A DNA stretch of 49,224 nt from a virus (Duplodnaviria; Heunggongvirae; Uroviricota; Caudoviricetes). Positions 3,308 to 44,474 of the stretch are shown one piece after another (the stretch's first letter is position 1; every line of letters begins with the position of its first letter). The notes beneath the pieces are model-generated. The model was not told where the DNA came from. It saw nothing but the letters and a program-made list of their open reading frames with translations, and searched no databases. The position numbers and the translations under genes were made by a program. The stretch lies in IMG/VR virus record IMGVR_UViG_2563366934_000004; one strand, written 5' to 3'.

Positions 3308-3883
3308 CTACGGCAGTGCTGGCCATTCAATATCCTGTGCAGTTGACGTATCAACACGGTTCAGCAATACCCGATACTTTTTCCATGCTTCCAGCAACGA
3401 GATTTCTTCCTCCGTTGCAATTTCCAGATCTGCAGCATCCTGAAGCGGCGCAATATGCTCACTGGCTACCTGCATCAGGTTGTTTTTTGTTTCTTCCGCC
3501 TCCCGGATCCGGAACAGTTTTTCTGCTTCCGTATCCTTCACCCAAGCTGTGCCGTTCCACTTCTGAAACTCCCCTTCCGGCGATAACCAGGTAACATTTT
3601 CCGGTAACGGACCGAGTTCAGAAATAAATAACGCGTCGCCGGAAGCCACGTCATAGACGGTTTTTCCCCGATGATCTTCAACGAGATGCCACGATGCCTC
3701 ATCACTGTTGAAAACAGCCACGAAGCCTGCCGGAATATCTGGCGGTGCAATATCGGTACTGTTTGCTGGCAGACCTGTATGAGGCGGAATATATGCGTCA
3801 CCTTCACCAATAAATTCATTAGTTCCGGCCAGCAGATTATAAATTTTTATGGTCCGTGCTTGTTCACTCATTCTGAATGCCAT
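3308..3883 (-). CDS. tfa: Tail fibre assembly protein (Tfa chaperone)
   Basis: 191 aa; ATG overlaps stf stop by 1 nt (TAATG); Tfa-like sequence immediately downstream of stf. Confidence 0.85.
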
Positions 3884-27545: not shown

Positions 27546-27816
27546 AATGTTACCGTAATATGTGAGTATCCATCGACTAGACACTAAGCAAAAAAGCTCC
27601 CGAAGGAGCCTTCATTTTCACTTTCTTAAATCTAACGACAGATGGCTAACATTTAAGTATTGTGAAATATTATCAAATGTAATCATCATTGATTTACAAA
27701 AGATACATTTTGCCCCGAAAGGATTTCTGTCAGAAACATCAAAAGATGATGTTCTATACTGAGAACCATGGCAACACGGGCATCTAAAGTGAATATGGTT
27801 TGTAATATTTTCTACC

Positions 27817-28029
27817 TCAAAGTGCCACTACATGAACAGCTGCAGGGCCTTTAGGTCCGTTCTCAATACCAAATTCGACTTCCTGATTCTCAGTTAACGT
27901 TTTGAAATCGTTGCTCTGAATAGCTGAGAAATGCACAAACACATCTTTGCTACCATCTTTCGGCGTGATGAAACCAAAACCTTTTTCAGGGTTAAACCAT
28001 TTCACTAAACCAGTCATTTTGTTAGACAT
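27817..28029 (-). CDS. cspI: Cold shock protein (CspA family)
   Basis: 70 aa; [21 protein letters not shown]... with RNP1/RNP2 motifs; long upstream leader typical of csp genes. Confidence 0.9.
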
Positions 28030-28392
28030 CATTATTACCTTTTGAAGAAGTTAGCCCTTGGGCAGAATGGTCCGAAAAAAAATATCAGAGAGAAAAACCA
28101 ACAAGGAAATCTCAAGAGGTACAAATAATAAAATTATAACAATGACTGCTTCAGATAATTTTGTAACAAACCAGAACACCATTAACGCATGATTAACCAA
28201 CCATAGCAAGGATTACTTTTGTAAAGAAAAACACACGAATGAAACAATAGCTTTATTTATTAATAAAACGTGTCATTCTGTCTAATGACCTTTTATCTTA
28301 CCCTTAAGATTTCAAGGATTTTGACTCATGGAAGAGTCCTTTTTATTTAAATTTCACATTCAGCGCTAAAAATAATCCGATTTAATATTAAT

Positions 28393-31174: not shown

Positions 31175-32024
31175 TTTTCCTCACATATGTCATATAGTAA
31201 AGGATTATATATACCGTTGTTTTGGACGCTCAAACAGCGAATCAGATCAAATAAAACGCACATTTGTTAACATTTACACAAAGTCTGCGTGGGATATTCT
31301 GAAAGAATATCCATAATGTGGAGAGAATCTATTAAAGTGCATGGTGCCGGATGCCTCCCGGTGAATTCAGTACCAGCACCTGAATCCGCGATTATCCCAT
31401 ATACCTACTCGCTGATTGCCCCTCCGCACAGGGGGATTCACCATGCCAGTTTCTTTTAACAAACTCCCCGCAAACCAGAGAACAGTCAACCGCCTGAATT
31501 GTGAAGTATTTAAAAATTTCTCCCGCTAACTGATACCCGGCTAACAGTCTGGCGTTTTCTTTTTCAGCAACGGGAAAGCAACAACCACCACACCCGCCAC
31601 CAGCACACCGTCAGCCAGCACTGACATTATCCGGCTGCTGCAATGCCATTCACAAAAACAGTAAGCAATCACTTTTTACCGTAACAGGTGATAATCCAGA
31701 TATGTATCTACCCCAGATGAGTAATCCGAAGTTCATCCATACCACAGGTCCTGGCTATTCTGTTGTACTCCTGAACAAGAGCAAATAATTCTGAATTAGC
31801 AACCATGAACTCATCGCAAACCCTCTGTATAGCATCACTATTCAGAATAATAACGTCTCTTCCCGAAAGACGATCAGGAGCACAGAACAAAACTGTCAAA
31901 CGGCTGAAGGCCTTTGCTCGTGCTGCATTGACTATATCAATACGCTGCCTAAGGATGAATGATCTTACCCAGCAATAGTGGACACGCGGCTAAGTGAGTA
32001 AACTCTCAGTCAGAGGTGACTCAC

Positions 32025-32324
32025 ATGACAAAAACAGTATCAACCAGTAAAAAACCCCGTAAACAGCATTCGCCTGAATTTCGCAGTGAAGCCCTGAAGC
32101 TTGCTGAACGCATCGGTGTTACTGCCGCAGCCCGTGAACTCAGCCTGTATGAATCACAGCTCTACAACTGGCGCAGTAAACAGCAAAATCAGCAGACGTC
32201 TTCTGAACGTGAACTGGAGATGTCTACCGAGATTGCACGTCTCAAACGCCAGCTGGCAGAACGGGATGAAGAGCTGGCTATCCTCCAAAAGGCCGCGACA
32301 TACTTCGCGAAGCGCCTGAAATGA
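32025..32324 (+). CDS. insE: IS3 transposase OrfA (InsE)
   Basis: [32 protein letters not shown]... HTH + leucine zipper; matches recalled IS3 InsE. Confidence 0.9.
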
Positions 32325-33187
32325 AGTATGTCTTTATTGAAAAACATCAGGCTGAGTTCAGCATCAAAGCAATGTGCCGCGTGCTCCGGGTGGCCCGCAG
32401 CGGCTGGTATACGTGGTGTCAGCGGCGGACAAGGATAAGCACGCGTCAGCAGTTCCGCCAACACTGCGACAGCGTTGTCCTCGCGGCTTTTACCCGGTCA
32501 AAACAGCGTTACGGTGCCCCACGCCTGACGGATGAACTGCGTGCTCAGGGTTACCCCTTTAACGTAAAAACCGTGGCGGCAAGCCTGCGCCGTCAGGGAC
32601 TGAGGGCAAAGGCCTCCCGGAAGTTCAGCCCGGTCAGCTACCGCGCACACGGCCTGCCTGTGTCAGAAAATCTGTTGGAGCAGGATTTTTACGCCAGTGG
32701 CCCGAACCAGAAGTGGGCAGGAGACATCACGTACTTACGTACAGATGAAGGCTGGCTGTATCTGGCAGTGGTCATTGACCTGTGGTCACGTGCCGTTATT
32801 GGCTGGTCAATGTCGCCACGCATGACGGCGCAACTGGCCTGCGATGCCCTGCAGATGGCGCTGTGGCGGCGTAAGAGGCCCCGGAACGTTATCGTTCACA
32901 CGGACCGTGGAGGCCAGTACTGTTCAGCAGATTATCAGGCGCAACTGAAGCGGCATAATCTGCGTGGAAGTATGAGCGCAAAAGGTTGCTGCTACGATAA
33001 TGCCTGCGTGGAAAGCTTCTTTCATTCGCTGAAAGTGGAATGTATCCATGGAGAACACTTTATCAGCCGGGAAATAATGCGGGCAACGGTGTTTAATTAT
33101 ATCGAATGTGATTACAATCGGTGGCGGCGGCACAGTTGGTGTGGCGGCCTCAGTCCGGAACAATTTGAAAACAAGAACCTCGCTTAG
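32321..33187 (+). CDS. insF: IS3 transposase OrfB (InsF; DDE integrase-like, expressed as OrfAB by -1 frameshift)
   Basis: 288 aa overlapping the orfA stop; DDE-type catalytic region. Confidence 0.9.
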
Positions 33188-33432
33188 GCCTGTGTCCATA
33201 TTACGTGGGTAGGATCAGAAACACCCCGACGCCTCATCAATATTCACTCTACCCACACCATATGAATGATAAATATTTAATGCTGAAAAAACCATTAGAC
33301 CGTATAACAAACACTCAATCAATACTTAACAGAACTTTTATTTTTGACAAACATATTATGTTTTCAACAATATCCTGAGCCAGGTATATTCCAGTATAAG
33401 GCTCTGCCGGAAGGAATCTGGAAGAATGAATA

Positions 33433-33509
33433 TGGCGCGCTGTACTGGATTCGAACCAGTGACCGATTGCTTAGAAGGCAATTGCTCTGTCCGGCTGAGC
33501 TAACAACGC
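33433..33509 (-). tRNA. argO: tRNA-Arg (anticodon UCU)
   Basis: 77 nt; cloverleaf folded by hand: acceptor GCGTTGT/ACAGCGC, D-arm GCTC/GAGC, anticodon arm ATTGC-CTTCTAA-GCAAT, T-arm CACTG-GTTCGAATCC-AGTA; CCA encoded. Confidence 0.8.
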
Positions 33510-33522
33510 TGAATACCGATAA

Positions 33523-33602
33523 TGGACCGCCATCGGGGACCCGCCCCCGCACCAACAACCCTGTTATCGTGTCGTCTGCTCTTCCTGATAAGCTAATGGC
33601 GG
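33523..33602 (-). pseudogene. tRNA-like element with degenerate anticodon arm (possible argN-type relic)
   Basis: 80 nt; perfect 7-bp acceptor stem (CCGCCAT/ATGGCGG) + discriminator + CCA; canonical U8 and D-arm (GCTT/GAGC, GG in loop); but no pairable anticodon stem and a T-arm with 6-nt loop lacking TTC. Confidence 0.4.
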
Positions 33603-33609
33603 TTTGTGA

Positions 33610-33685
33610 TGGTGGCCCTTGCTGGATTTGAACCAGCGACCTGGCGATTATGAGTCGCTCGCTCTCACCACTGAGCTAAAGGGCC
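33610..33685 (-). tRNA. ileZ: tRNA with CAU anticodon, tRNA-Ile2-like (ileZ-type; could also be read as Met)
   Basis: 76 nt; acceptor GGCCCTT/AAGGGCC, anticodon loop CTCATAA, T-loop GGTTCAAATCC, CCA encoded; body resembles recalled E. coli ileX. Confidence 0.75.
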
Positions 33686-33721: not shown

Positions 33722-33749
33722 AATAAAAAACCCGCTCGGCGGCGGGTTG
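33722..33749 (-). terminator. tR'-like rho-independent terminator downstream of PR'
   Basis: Minus strand CCCGC-CGCCGA-GCGGG followed by TTTTTTATT, about 60 nt downstream of the putative PR'. Confidence 0.6.
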
Positions 33750-33828: not shown

Positions 33829-34650
33829 TTACCTAGTTACCTTTTTTAACTGCCGCTCAGCCCATGCTTCTTCAATATCAAACCGGGTCACCAGCGCATC
33901 ATAGAATTTCTTAACTGTTTTTTCCCATGACGCGCGTGTTATCTGGTTTGTCACCTCGCATATAGCATTAAATGCCTCCGTTGATGGTAGTCTTTCATAG
34001 CCACGACCACCACAACGCTGGCAGTCTCTGATAACAGGCATACCACGTTTTACCGACTCTTCACGGTGAATGGCGACACCACGCCCACGGCAATCCTTAC
34101 AGGCGGTGGAAACCTCACCCTTTCCGCCACACTCCGGACAGGCAACTTTTACCACCTCCCTGACTTTTTTCCATTCTTCCCAGTAAGACGGATACACACC
34201 TTTCGTACACTTTGCCCATACCGGCGGCTTACCATCCGGATACTGGACCTTGTTTGTAAAAACTACGCTTTCAATAAATTTTTCCCCATAGCAACAAGGG
34301 CACTGCTTTTTACTCGCTGCGCTGCGGGCATAATCCTCAAAAGCGTACGAAGCCATAATGCGCATCACTACCGGTTTTATTTCTGCCGGAAGTTTTCTCA
34401 ACGCCGCCACACGATCGCACCGACTGAGTGCATAATCTGCCAGTAATTCTGTTGCCCGCGCCCTGTCATTCATACTGATGCCCATTTTCCCCAGGAACGC
34501 AGAAAACCCCATCTCAGCCCGATTCTGTGTCATGCCCTGCGCGGCCATCACATCAGTGATACTCAGCGCATCTTTTGACGTTGAAGCCGATGCATCGGTC
34601 AGGCAAGGGGATTTTGGGGAGTAGTATTTCGGTAAATCTTCCAGTTTCAT
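33829..34650 (-). CDS. quuQ: Late antiterminator Q (Zn-finger type)
   Basis: 273 aa, ATG 34648-34650; several CxxC pairs (CPCC, CPECGGKG, CKDCRGRG, CQRCGGRG); located directly upstream of PR'/tR' and lysis genes. Confidence 0.75.
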   Translation of the reverse strand: MKLEDLPKYYSPKSPCLTDASASTSKDALSITDVMAAQGMTQNRAEMGFSAFLGKMGISMNDRARATELLADYALSRCDRVAALRKLPAEIKPVVMRIMASYAFEDYARSAASKKQCPCCYGEKFIESVVFTNKVQYPDGKPPVWAKCTKGVYPSYWEEWKKVREVVKVACPECGGKGEVSTACKDCRGRGVAIHREESVKRGMPVIRDCQRCGGRGYERLPSTEAFNAICEVTNQITRASWEKTVKKFYDALVTRFDIEEAWAERQLKKVTR

Positions 34651-36897: not shown

Positions 36898-37053
36898 TTA
36901 CTCCTCAGGTTCGTAAGCTGTGAAGACAGCGACCTCCGTCTGGCCGGTTCGGATTCGTACCTCGCAGAGGTCTTTCCTCGTTACCAGTGCCGTCACTATG
37001 ACGGTTAAACAGATGACGATCAGGGCGATTAACATCGCCTTTTGCTGCTTCAT
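36898..37053 (-). CDS. hokD: Hok-family type I toxin (HokD/Gef-like)
   Basis: 51 aa MKQQKAMLIALIVICLTVIVTALVTRKDLCEVRIRTGQTEVAVFTAYEPEE; in-frame upstream extension corresponds to the mok-type overlapping frame. Confidence 0.85.
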   Translation of the reverse strand: MKQQKAMLIALIVICLTVIVTALVTRKDLCEVRIRTGQTEVAVFTAYEPEE

Positions 37054-37795
37054 AGCCTGCTTCTCCTTGCCTTTCGGCACGTAAGAGGCTAACCTACATG
37101 TGTCTAGCATAGATATGGCCTCAGATTAATGTTAAGCGTCTTGCCGGACGCGTAATGTTAACTGGGGCTTTTCTCTATCTGCCTTTGGTGTTGATGCCCG
37201 AGGCAGATAGCCTCAAGCACCCGCAGCAATTCTACTTAACTACCGTTACCTCGCCAATATGAAATCAATCAGAAAGGTGATCCATAAGAACAACAGCAAG
37301 ACAATAAATTGCCATTACAGCAGCAATAGCCAGCGCACATTTGAGAACCAGCACCACAACCTCCTGTATTGGACGTACACCAGTCCTGATAAATATGAGG
37401 CTGTCTCGTCAGTGATTCAATACAACTACTGGGTATAGTTTCTATGATTTTGTTCTGTGGAAATGGAAAACAGCAACCAGTCACGACCAGCACTTCTTTA
37501 AACATGCCAAGTCACACGCAAGCCAACATTATAGTTCCCTTTGAGCGAGCAGATGAAGCTAGCAAAAATATTGATCACTTAGGATGCATTACTAACGTTG
37601 CTATGTGTTAACGAACAGGGAGTGGGTCATCAGCATAAATATTTATGCAGTAGGTTTCTTTTAGGACTAGATTAATCAAAAACATTTAGATAAAATTATA
37701 AAATCAAGAAATTGGTGGCAATTAATCTTTAATTGTGCCAGCTGAATTTCGTTATTATAGAAGATTAGCTTTTTTTTGAATATTTGGAGAGTAAA

Positions 37796-44416: not shown

Positions 44417-44474
44417 TTTCTGGTGACGTTTGGCGGTATCAGTTTTACTCCGTGACTGCTCTGCCGCCGTTTTT
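44417..44474 (+). ncRNA. dicF: DicF small RNA (ftsZ-targeting) with intrinsic terminator
   Basis: TTTCTGGTGACGTTTGGCGGTATCAGTTTTACTCCGTGACTGCTCTGCCGCC + TTTTT matches recalled DicF; GGCGG...CCGCC terminator stem. Confidence 0.8.

Follow-up and report, generated by a model that had tools for sequence, protein, structure and literature searches.

The stretch of DNA under analysis (hereafter the window; 49,224 nucleotides, IMG/VR record IMGVR_UViG_2563366934_000004) harbors a RusA gene and the gene for a 273-aa antiterminator Q, both located on the same strand and upstream of a compact tRNA cluster (Table 1). The cluster is arranged in the order tRNA(CAT), an 80-nt element, and tRNA-Arg(UCU); the spacer measures 7 nt on the CAT side of the element and 13 nt on the Arg(UCU) side, and both flanking tRNAs are functional. 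When the complete 49-kb window was scanned with ARAGORN, these two tRNAs were the only ones called, and none was detected in between. The annotation of a RefSeq genome identical to the window in this region runs from an antitermination protein through tRNA-Ile directly to tRNA-Arg, DUF3927, IraM, an esterase, and a holin, with nothing annotated in the position of the element. The window is also 100% identical over the cluster to phage mEp460_ev081, to which it aligned with 66% coverage and 97.7% identity over 25 kb. From the tR'-like terminator located between Q and the tRNAs, whose role is read here from lambdoid late-operon architecture, we infer that expression of the tRNA cluster would depend on Q. 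Approximately 250 nt past tRNA-Arg(UCU), on the opposite strand, lie orfA and orfB of an IS3-family transposase (window 32016-33187, plus strand; Pfam rve, rve_2, and HTH_21). Additionally, Rfam matches at the gathering level were detected at window positions 3342-3540, 27771-28187, 31285-31475, 37048-37222, and 44418-44469; the five matches listed, namely IS009, a cspA-type thermoregulator, STnc100, sok (the hok/sok antitoxin RNA), and DicF, are typical cargo of Qin/mEp460-like lambdoid prophages.

Table 1. Features of the tRNA cluster, of the element and its arms, and of the chromosomal relative (window positions unless a locus is given)
Feature	Position	Strand	Evidence
Antiterminator Q gene, 273-aa ORF	33829..34650	-	Pfam Antiterm PF03589, E=6e-55; RefSeq annotation of identical locus
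tR'-like intrinsic terminator, hairpin AACCCGCCGCCGAGCGGGTT + T run, between Q and the tRNAs	33729..33748	-	Terminator scan
tRNA with anticodon CAT, ileZ-type tRNA-Ile2	33610..33685	-	ARAGORN (as Met); Rfam 72.5 bits; PGAP tRNA-Ile at identical locus
Element (degenerate tRNA, argN slot, type A, 80 nt)	33523..33602	-	Fold, argN alignment, rejection by Rfam and ARAGORN
Acceptor stem, 5' strand CCGCCAU, pairing with 33533..33527 (AUGGCGG)	33596..33602	-	Fold; same as in argN
D arm GCUU-AUCAGGAA-GAGC, with A14, G18, G19, A20, and A21	33578..33593	-	Sequence and fold
Aberrant anticodon arm, stem GACGA/UUGUU, 13-nt loop CACGAUAACAGGG	33554..33576	-	Rfam alignment of the identical arm of type B; RNAfold
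Degenerate T arm CGGGG-GCGGGU-CCCCG, without U54-U55-C56	33534..33549	-	Sequence and fold
Acceptor 3' strand AUGGCGG, discriminator U, encoded CCA	33523..33533	-	Sequence and fold
tRNA-Arg(UCU), argO-type	33433..33509	-	ARAGORN; Rfam 68 bits
Type C, stand-alone tRNA-like element, E. coli K-12, between yahL and yahN, start of the yahM annotation	L004:2508-2588

On the minus strand, from 33602 to 33523, the element reads CCGCCAU-UA-GCUU-AUCAGGAA-GAGC-A-GACGA-CACGAUAACAGGG-UUGUU-GGUG-CGGGG-GCGGGU-CCCCG-AUGGCGG-U-CCA. Its minimum-energy structure in RNAfold is a cloverleaf in which the acceptor stem has 7 bp, the D stem has 4 bp and closes 8 nt that include GG, the middle arm is aberrant, and the T stem has 5 bp and closes 6 nt; the fold energy is unexceptional (z = -1.29). 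In comparison with a canonical tRNA, the element retains the 7-bp acceptor stem with a discriminator U and a 3' CCA, as well as U8 and a D arm whose 4-bp stem closes a loop containing G18 and G19, and departs from it in the two other arms: where a 5-bp anticodon stem, a 7-nt loop, U33, and a purine at position 37 are expected, the loop comprises 13 nt, and where a 7-nt T loop with U54-U55-C56-R-A is expected, the loop comprises the 6 nt GCGGGU. The original prediction had described the perfect acceptor stem, discriminator, CCA, U8, and canonical D arm, together with a T arm having a 6-nt loop and no TTC, and all of these were borne out by the sequence and by RNAfold. Its further statement that no normal anticodon stem could be folded held for the loop; the stem GACGA/UUGUU, however, is present, with 5 bp (two of them G.U) in the canonical register. 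This register was taken from the alignment to the Rfam tRNA model of a sister form with an identical arm (type B, below), and the minimum-energy alternative found by RNAfold for the same arm is a 7-bp pairing, CGAUAAC/GUUGUUG, with an AGG triloop.

The tRNA detectors rejected the element consistently. No tRNA was called within it by ARAGORN at a relaxed threshold (-ps), and the Rfam tRNA model (RF00005) produced no match at E<=10 in a 111-nt search; the covariance model thus gave no canonical tRNA, and therefore the manual fold of the original prediction stands. The presence of a canonical-register anticodon stem with an intact acceptor stem and CCA would fit a decoding tRNA with an expanded anticodon loop, such as a frameshift or unusual-codon reader, to which we nonetheless give next to no credence: its 13-nt loop lacks the frame of U33 and purine 37, its T loop is non-functional, both ARAGORN and Rfam reject it, and its loop sequence is polymorphic. 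The identity elements of ArgRS are A20 and C35 (anticodon UCG or UCU), and the element conserves A20 in its D loop but has neither an anticodon frame nor C35. Assignment to another RNA family was discarded, as Rfam at E<=10 returned a lone and meaningless lncRNA match, and so was a coding role, the overlapping ORFs all being short and none of them credible. One 95-aa ORF lies antisense over tRNA-Arg, the element, and part of tRNA-Ile (window 33344-33631, plus strand), and it is almost certainly spurious, though a gene caller could take it up.

The location of the element between tRNA(CAT) and tRNA-Arg(UCU), downstream of Q and the tR'-like terminator, corresponds to the slot of argN, the tRNA-Arg(UCG) of the ileZ-argN-argO cluster found upstream of stx in Shiga-toxin phages, phage 933W among them. 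The Shiga-toxin phage Stx2a_1447 (AP012536), annotated with ileZ, argN, and argO just before stx, exhibits the same arrangement as the window, and the alignment of the element with its argN extended through both spacers, the acceptor, positions 8-16 and the D stem, the T stem, and the 3' end, leaving the middle as the region of difference. The acceptor strands CCGCCAU/AUGGCGG, the discriminator U, the CCA, the T stem, and the 3' spacer are identical between the two, and the 5' spacer and the D arm are similar. In contrast, argN carries the arm CCAGC-CUUCGAA-GCUGG and the T loop UUCGAGC and is called as a tRNA by ARAGORN, whereas the element, which remains uncalled, has a T loop of 6 nt and an arm of unrelated sequence that closes 13 nt. 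Identity to annotated tRNA-Arg in BLAST amounted to 76-78%. At the level of sequence, the full-length argN alignment including both spacers, in combination with best matches of at least 90% identity in approximately 1,790 E. coli RefSeq records, excludes a chance resemblance to tRNA; by position and sequence, the element is a member of the argN-slot gene family. As judged from the same comparison, its anticodon arm is not a point-mutated argN arm and instead represents a different arm, common to an older lineage; a second copy of CAGACGACACGATAACAGGGTTGTTGG, as the source of the inserted arm, was absent from the window at up to three mismatches. The element descends from a functional tRNA gene family and misses essential parts, and it behaves as a tRNA pseudogene that falls outside what Rfam or ARAGORN define as the tRNA family. 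A literature search for ileZ, argN, and argO together found no publication.

Two groups of known tRNA-derived elements offer a comparison. The species 1 and 2 RNAs of phage T4 are conserved and stable tRNA-like products co-transcribed with the phage tRNA cluster. They resemble the element as non-decoding RNAs within a phage tRNA transcription unit, processed, as predicted for the element, along with the tRNAs; however, the T4 RNAs are conserved and stable, whereas the population data on the element point to decay. The pseudo-tRNAs ptwF, pawZ, and pauD of E. coli K-12 are located at prophage ends and comprise partial 3'-end duplicates resulting from integration at a host tRNA gene. Like these, the element is tRNA-derived, probably non-functional, and located in prophage DNA, but it is of full length and lies inside a tRNA cluster carried by the phage.

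We distinguish, with names coined here, the form found in the window (type A), the form found in phiP27 and E. coli 06-00048 (type B), and a chromosomal form (type C), all of which share a lineage signature consisting of the D loop AUCAGGAA, then GAGC, then A-GACGAC. The 18-mer TCAGGAAGAGCAGACGAC, which spans this signature, was found in at least 120 IMG/VR contigs. Across 185,579 species genomes, its matches with tRNA-like context were all in Escherichia/Shigella, save for one metagenome bin labelled only Proteobacteria, which bears a type C sequence, and the 14 other matches were due to chance. Among E. coli RefSeq genomes, 5,206 of 5,426 matched the element, at roughly 9,000 places in total, with a best identity of at least 99% in 1,025 records, 95-99% in 570, and 90-95% in 196.

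The variation of the element was compared with that of its neighbors across 112 prophage loci with full flanks, which were picked by the exact 18-mer within the element and are therefore biased against seeing variation in it. Even so, indels or other changes were observed in the element at 38 of the 112 loci (34%), as against one locus for ileZ and six for argO, and the number of haplotypes reached 24 for the element, 8 for ileZ, and 14 for argO; in the main argO variant, the T stem carries a compensatory change affecting both of its sides. Where the T stem of the element meets its loop (window 33544-33548, minus strand), the G-run varied from 4 to 16 G, with 5 G in 71 of 105 copies, probably through slippage in unconstrained DNA; alleles with a long G-run (e.g., L041, L064, and L033) also carry U8 -> G, a change found in 12 of the 105 parsed type A copies. 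One acceptor pair was broken in 13 of the 105 (e.g., CCGUCAU, CCGGCAU, GAUGACGG, GAUAGCGG, and GGCGAUCCA), none of them compensated, although such breaks are only about two to three times as frequent as in the flanking tRNAs. Four further copies (L024, L037, L063, and L113) end inside the element, the terminal CCA is missing in L011, and length variants also occur in finished genomes, as in a 104-nt match to the 100-nt query. Speaking against decay, the commonest type A haplotype, which is that of the window itself, has a perfect acceptor stem, D arm, and CCA and is widespread (the 1,025 RefSeq records at 99% identity or more), and across type A copies the D stem was intact in 105 of 105, the CCA in 104 of 105, and the acceptor stem in 92 of 105. 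The element exhibits the relaxed constraint of a tRNA pseudogene, yet its D stem and CCA are almost always kept. The frequent substitution of G35 by C was considered as a stem-breaking change and discarded, as it breaks the minimum-energy 7-bp pairing and falls in the loop under the canonical-register stem; two common arm substitutions are uninformative because they are located in the loop under the canonical-register fold.

An independent view of the slot was obtained by anchoring on the 3' end of ileZ in 120 IMG/VR loci, a sample that is independent of the element. Type A or B occupied the slot in approximately 28 of these 120, and the other 92 (L150-L241) exhibited approximately 47 different middle sequences. 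Many of the alleles are Arg(UCG), some of them with mismatched acceptor or T stems or with T loops that drift from UUCGAGU via UUCGGGU and CUCGGGU to GUCGAGU; there are also one Arg(UCU) allele, several Lys(UUU)-like alleles, and internally deleted alleles of 66 nt. A single acceptor/D/T chassis underlies all of these, as well as the chimeric and aberrant-arm versions. In locus L164, the middle gene is lacking and tRNA-Arg directly follows ileZ, and in L165 and L187, argN and argO are fused as a chimeric gene. Judging from these alleles, the middle gene is evidently the one of the three that is dispensable and changes fast. In this widespread cluster, which lies upstream of stx in Shiga-toxin phages, the middle slot is hypervariable, and some of its alleles are broken.

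The same loci bear on two further readings of the element. The tight packing of the cluster, with its spacers of 7 and 13 nt, and the fact that most copies preserve the acceptor helix, the T stem, and the CCA would be compatible with a cis-acting processing spacer, whose acceptor/T-stem minihelix and CCA would be retained because its cleavage by RNase P and RNase E helps to free ileZ and argO from the polycistronic late transcript. However, the loci without a middle gene or with fused argN/argO indicate that the middle element is not required, and we therefore regard this reading as quite improbable. A DNA-level target of recombination or integration, either an att-like site or a hotspot at which prophages exchange DNA, would account for the breakpoints inside the element in four loci and the lost CCA in L011, as well as for mosaic-looking alleles. 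One of the latter, L216, combines an intact Arg(UCG) anticodon arm with the degenerate T arm of the window (GGGGGGCGGGUCCCC); the lesions of the T loop and of the arm can therefore occur apart and have been reshuffled by recombination. Still, no integrase, repeat, or att-like duplication adjoins the element, breakpoints are rare (approximately 5 of 120 loci), and the mosaics need no dedicated site, being explained by homologous exchange among tRNA clusters of similar sequence, all of which renders such a target highly improbable.

Type B occupies the same slot as type A, with an identical arm (AGACGACACGAUAACAGGGUUGUUGGUG) and approximately 93% identity to the element, and differs from it by a canonical 7-nt T loop, UUCGAGU, and by the D stem GCUC. 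Its score on the Rfam tRNA model, 33.3 bits, lies above the gathering score of 29, and this better-preserved sister is already known to annotation, as PGAP flags it as 'tRNA-OTHER' in E. coli 06-00048 (NZ_CP015229, L003:1506-1586). In phiP27 (AJ298298), where only ileZ and argO are annotated, type B lies in the 100-nt gap between them (L002:1610-1710) with one T-stem mismatch (CCUGG), a version common to four loci. The literature search on tRNA-OTHER in combination with prophages found nothing.

The chromosomal type C bears the same acceptor stem, D arm (AUCAGGAA), A-GACGA...UUGUU stem, and T stem as the element, with 80% identity over 87 nt; unlike the element, it stands alone, with its own predicted promoter, a 9-nt loop, an 8-nt variable region, and the T loop UUCGAGG, and its aberrant arm is separated from that of type A by several indels (9-nt vs. 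13-nt loop). An intact T loop of the form UUCGAGN is thus common to types B and C and lost in the type A of the window. The cloverleaf of type C can be drawn in two ways, one in which a 7-bp stem closes 6 nt and one in which the GACGA/UUGUU stem closes 9 nt. ARAGORN labels it 'tRNA-Ser(gga)', a forced call, and the Rfam search on type C gave no credible match. In E. ruysiae, E. whittamii, E. sp. E1V33, and E. albertii, type C is identical at 81 of 81 positions, whereas in the same species the 82-nt leader is identical at 66-72 of 82 and the 82 nt downstream at approximately 50 of 82. Within E. coli, 4,822 of 5,171 records were identical in type C vs. 2,964 of 5,169 in the equally long leader. 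In the variant examined, which came from an O157:H7 genome, G-C replaces G.U in the T stem and the pair is so kept; the other type C records at 98.8% identity in the spread listing came from O157:H7 or from unserotyped strains whose genomes are of comparable size. A predicted sigma-70 promoter, TTGACA-16-CATAAT, agreeing with the consensus at 11 of 12 positions and largely conserved, is located 82 nt upstream (L004:2392-2419). Such conservation, as read from these alignments, argues for strong purifying selection on the chromosomal type C, and it would follow that the loss of a normal anticodon loop alone did not make the RNA useless. The idea that the 82-nt leader represents a decayed ileZ, and the whole a fossil cluster, was abandoned, as the local alignments of the four species' leaders to ileZ plus spacer were no better than those of shuffles; the leader shares with ileZ-plus-spacer only CATATCA, directly 5' of type C.

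These relatives raised the possibility that the element is itself a working, non-decoding tRNA-like RNA, in which a function of the A/B/C lineage exerted through the acceptor and D body, for instance as a decoy or substrate of a tRNA-binding enzyme or toxin, is kept in the phage copy. The perfect conservation of type C across species while its flanks diverge, its near-consensus predicted promoter, and its pair-keeping T-stem variant all speak for this possibility, as do the canonical T loop and tRNA-model score of type B and the retention of acceptor stem, D arm, and CCA in most type A copies. On the other hand, type A lacks the T loop of types B and C and has a length-variable G-run in its place, its arm differs from that of type C by several indels, truncated or broken-stem copies exist, and the literature search found no function or partner. 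Because of the lost T loop and the indels that separate the arm from that of type C, we consider retained function in the phage copy unlikely. The fuller version, in which types A, B, and C constitute an undescribed family of non-decoding tRNA-like RNAs, with type C selected and self-transcribed and the window copy still partly active through its acceptor/D body, appears to us slightly less likely again. The aberrant-arm lineage may nevertheless once have had, or elsewhere still have, a function.

We thus favor, with good though not full confidence, the reading of the element as a pseudogenised allele of the middle tRNA (the argN slot) in the lambdoid cluster ileZ-argN-argO, non-decoding and carried along in the late operon. 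Of the two possibilities raised by the original prediction, a decaying third tRNA equivalent to argN is the one supported, by the slot, the common spacers and stems, the failed detectors, and the indel-rich copies; for a tRNA-derived element with another role, nothing supporting was found in the T-loop-less window copy, and such a role may pertain to the wider aberrant-arm lineage (types A/B/C). As a pseudogenised argN-slot allele, the element would be transcribed passively as part of the late transcript that Q antiterminates. General tRNA biology suggests that, thanks to the intact acceptor helix, T stem, and CCA, RNase P and the 3' trimming enzymes or exonucleases may still excise it, leaving the maturation of its neighbors unblocked. 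The product would be non-decoding, would be unlikely to be charged by ArgRS because C35 is missing (A20 being present), and would probably be turned over as a defective tRNA. Its persistence could reflect its shortness, its position wedged between two selected tRNAs, and the swapping of segments with other slot alleles. For the window itself, the result chiefly concerns annotation: the gap between the two tRNAs is neither empty nor occupied by a third working tRNA, and most likely holds an argN-slot relic; as such a relic implies, the prophage would therefore supply tRNA-Ile2 and tRNA-Arg(UCU) but not tRNA-Arg(UCG).

Type C, located in the core genome under the poorly conserved yahM annotation, emerges in E. 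coli K-12 as a candidate small RNA, new and tRNA-like, that can be put to the test, and this by-product may outweigh the result on the window in importance. The literature search on yahM or yahL in combination with tRNA or tRNA-like RNA found no report. A small-RNA-seq preprint lists yahM among antibiotic-responsive small transcripts (10.1101/2019.12.16.878389), which provides only indirect evidence of expression. Conservation of the yahM ORF does not extend beyond E. coli, and the ORF may be a mis-annotation. Its region is absent in two of the four species in which type C is identical, and the annotated yahM ATG falls within the 3' acceptor strand of type C.
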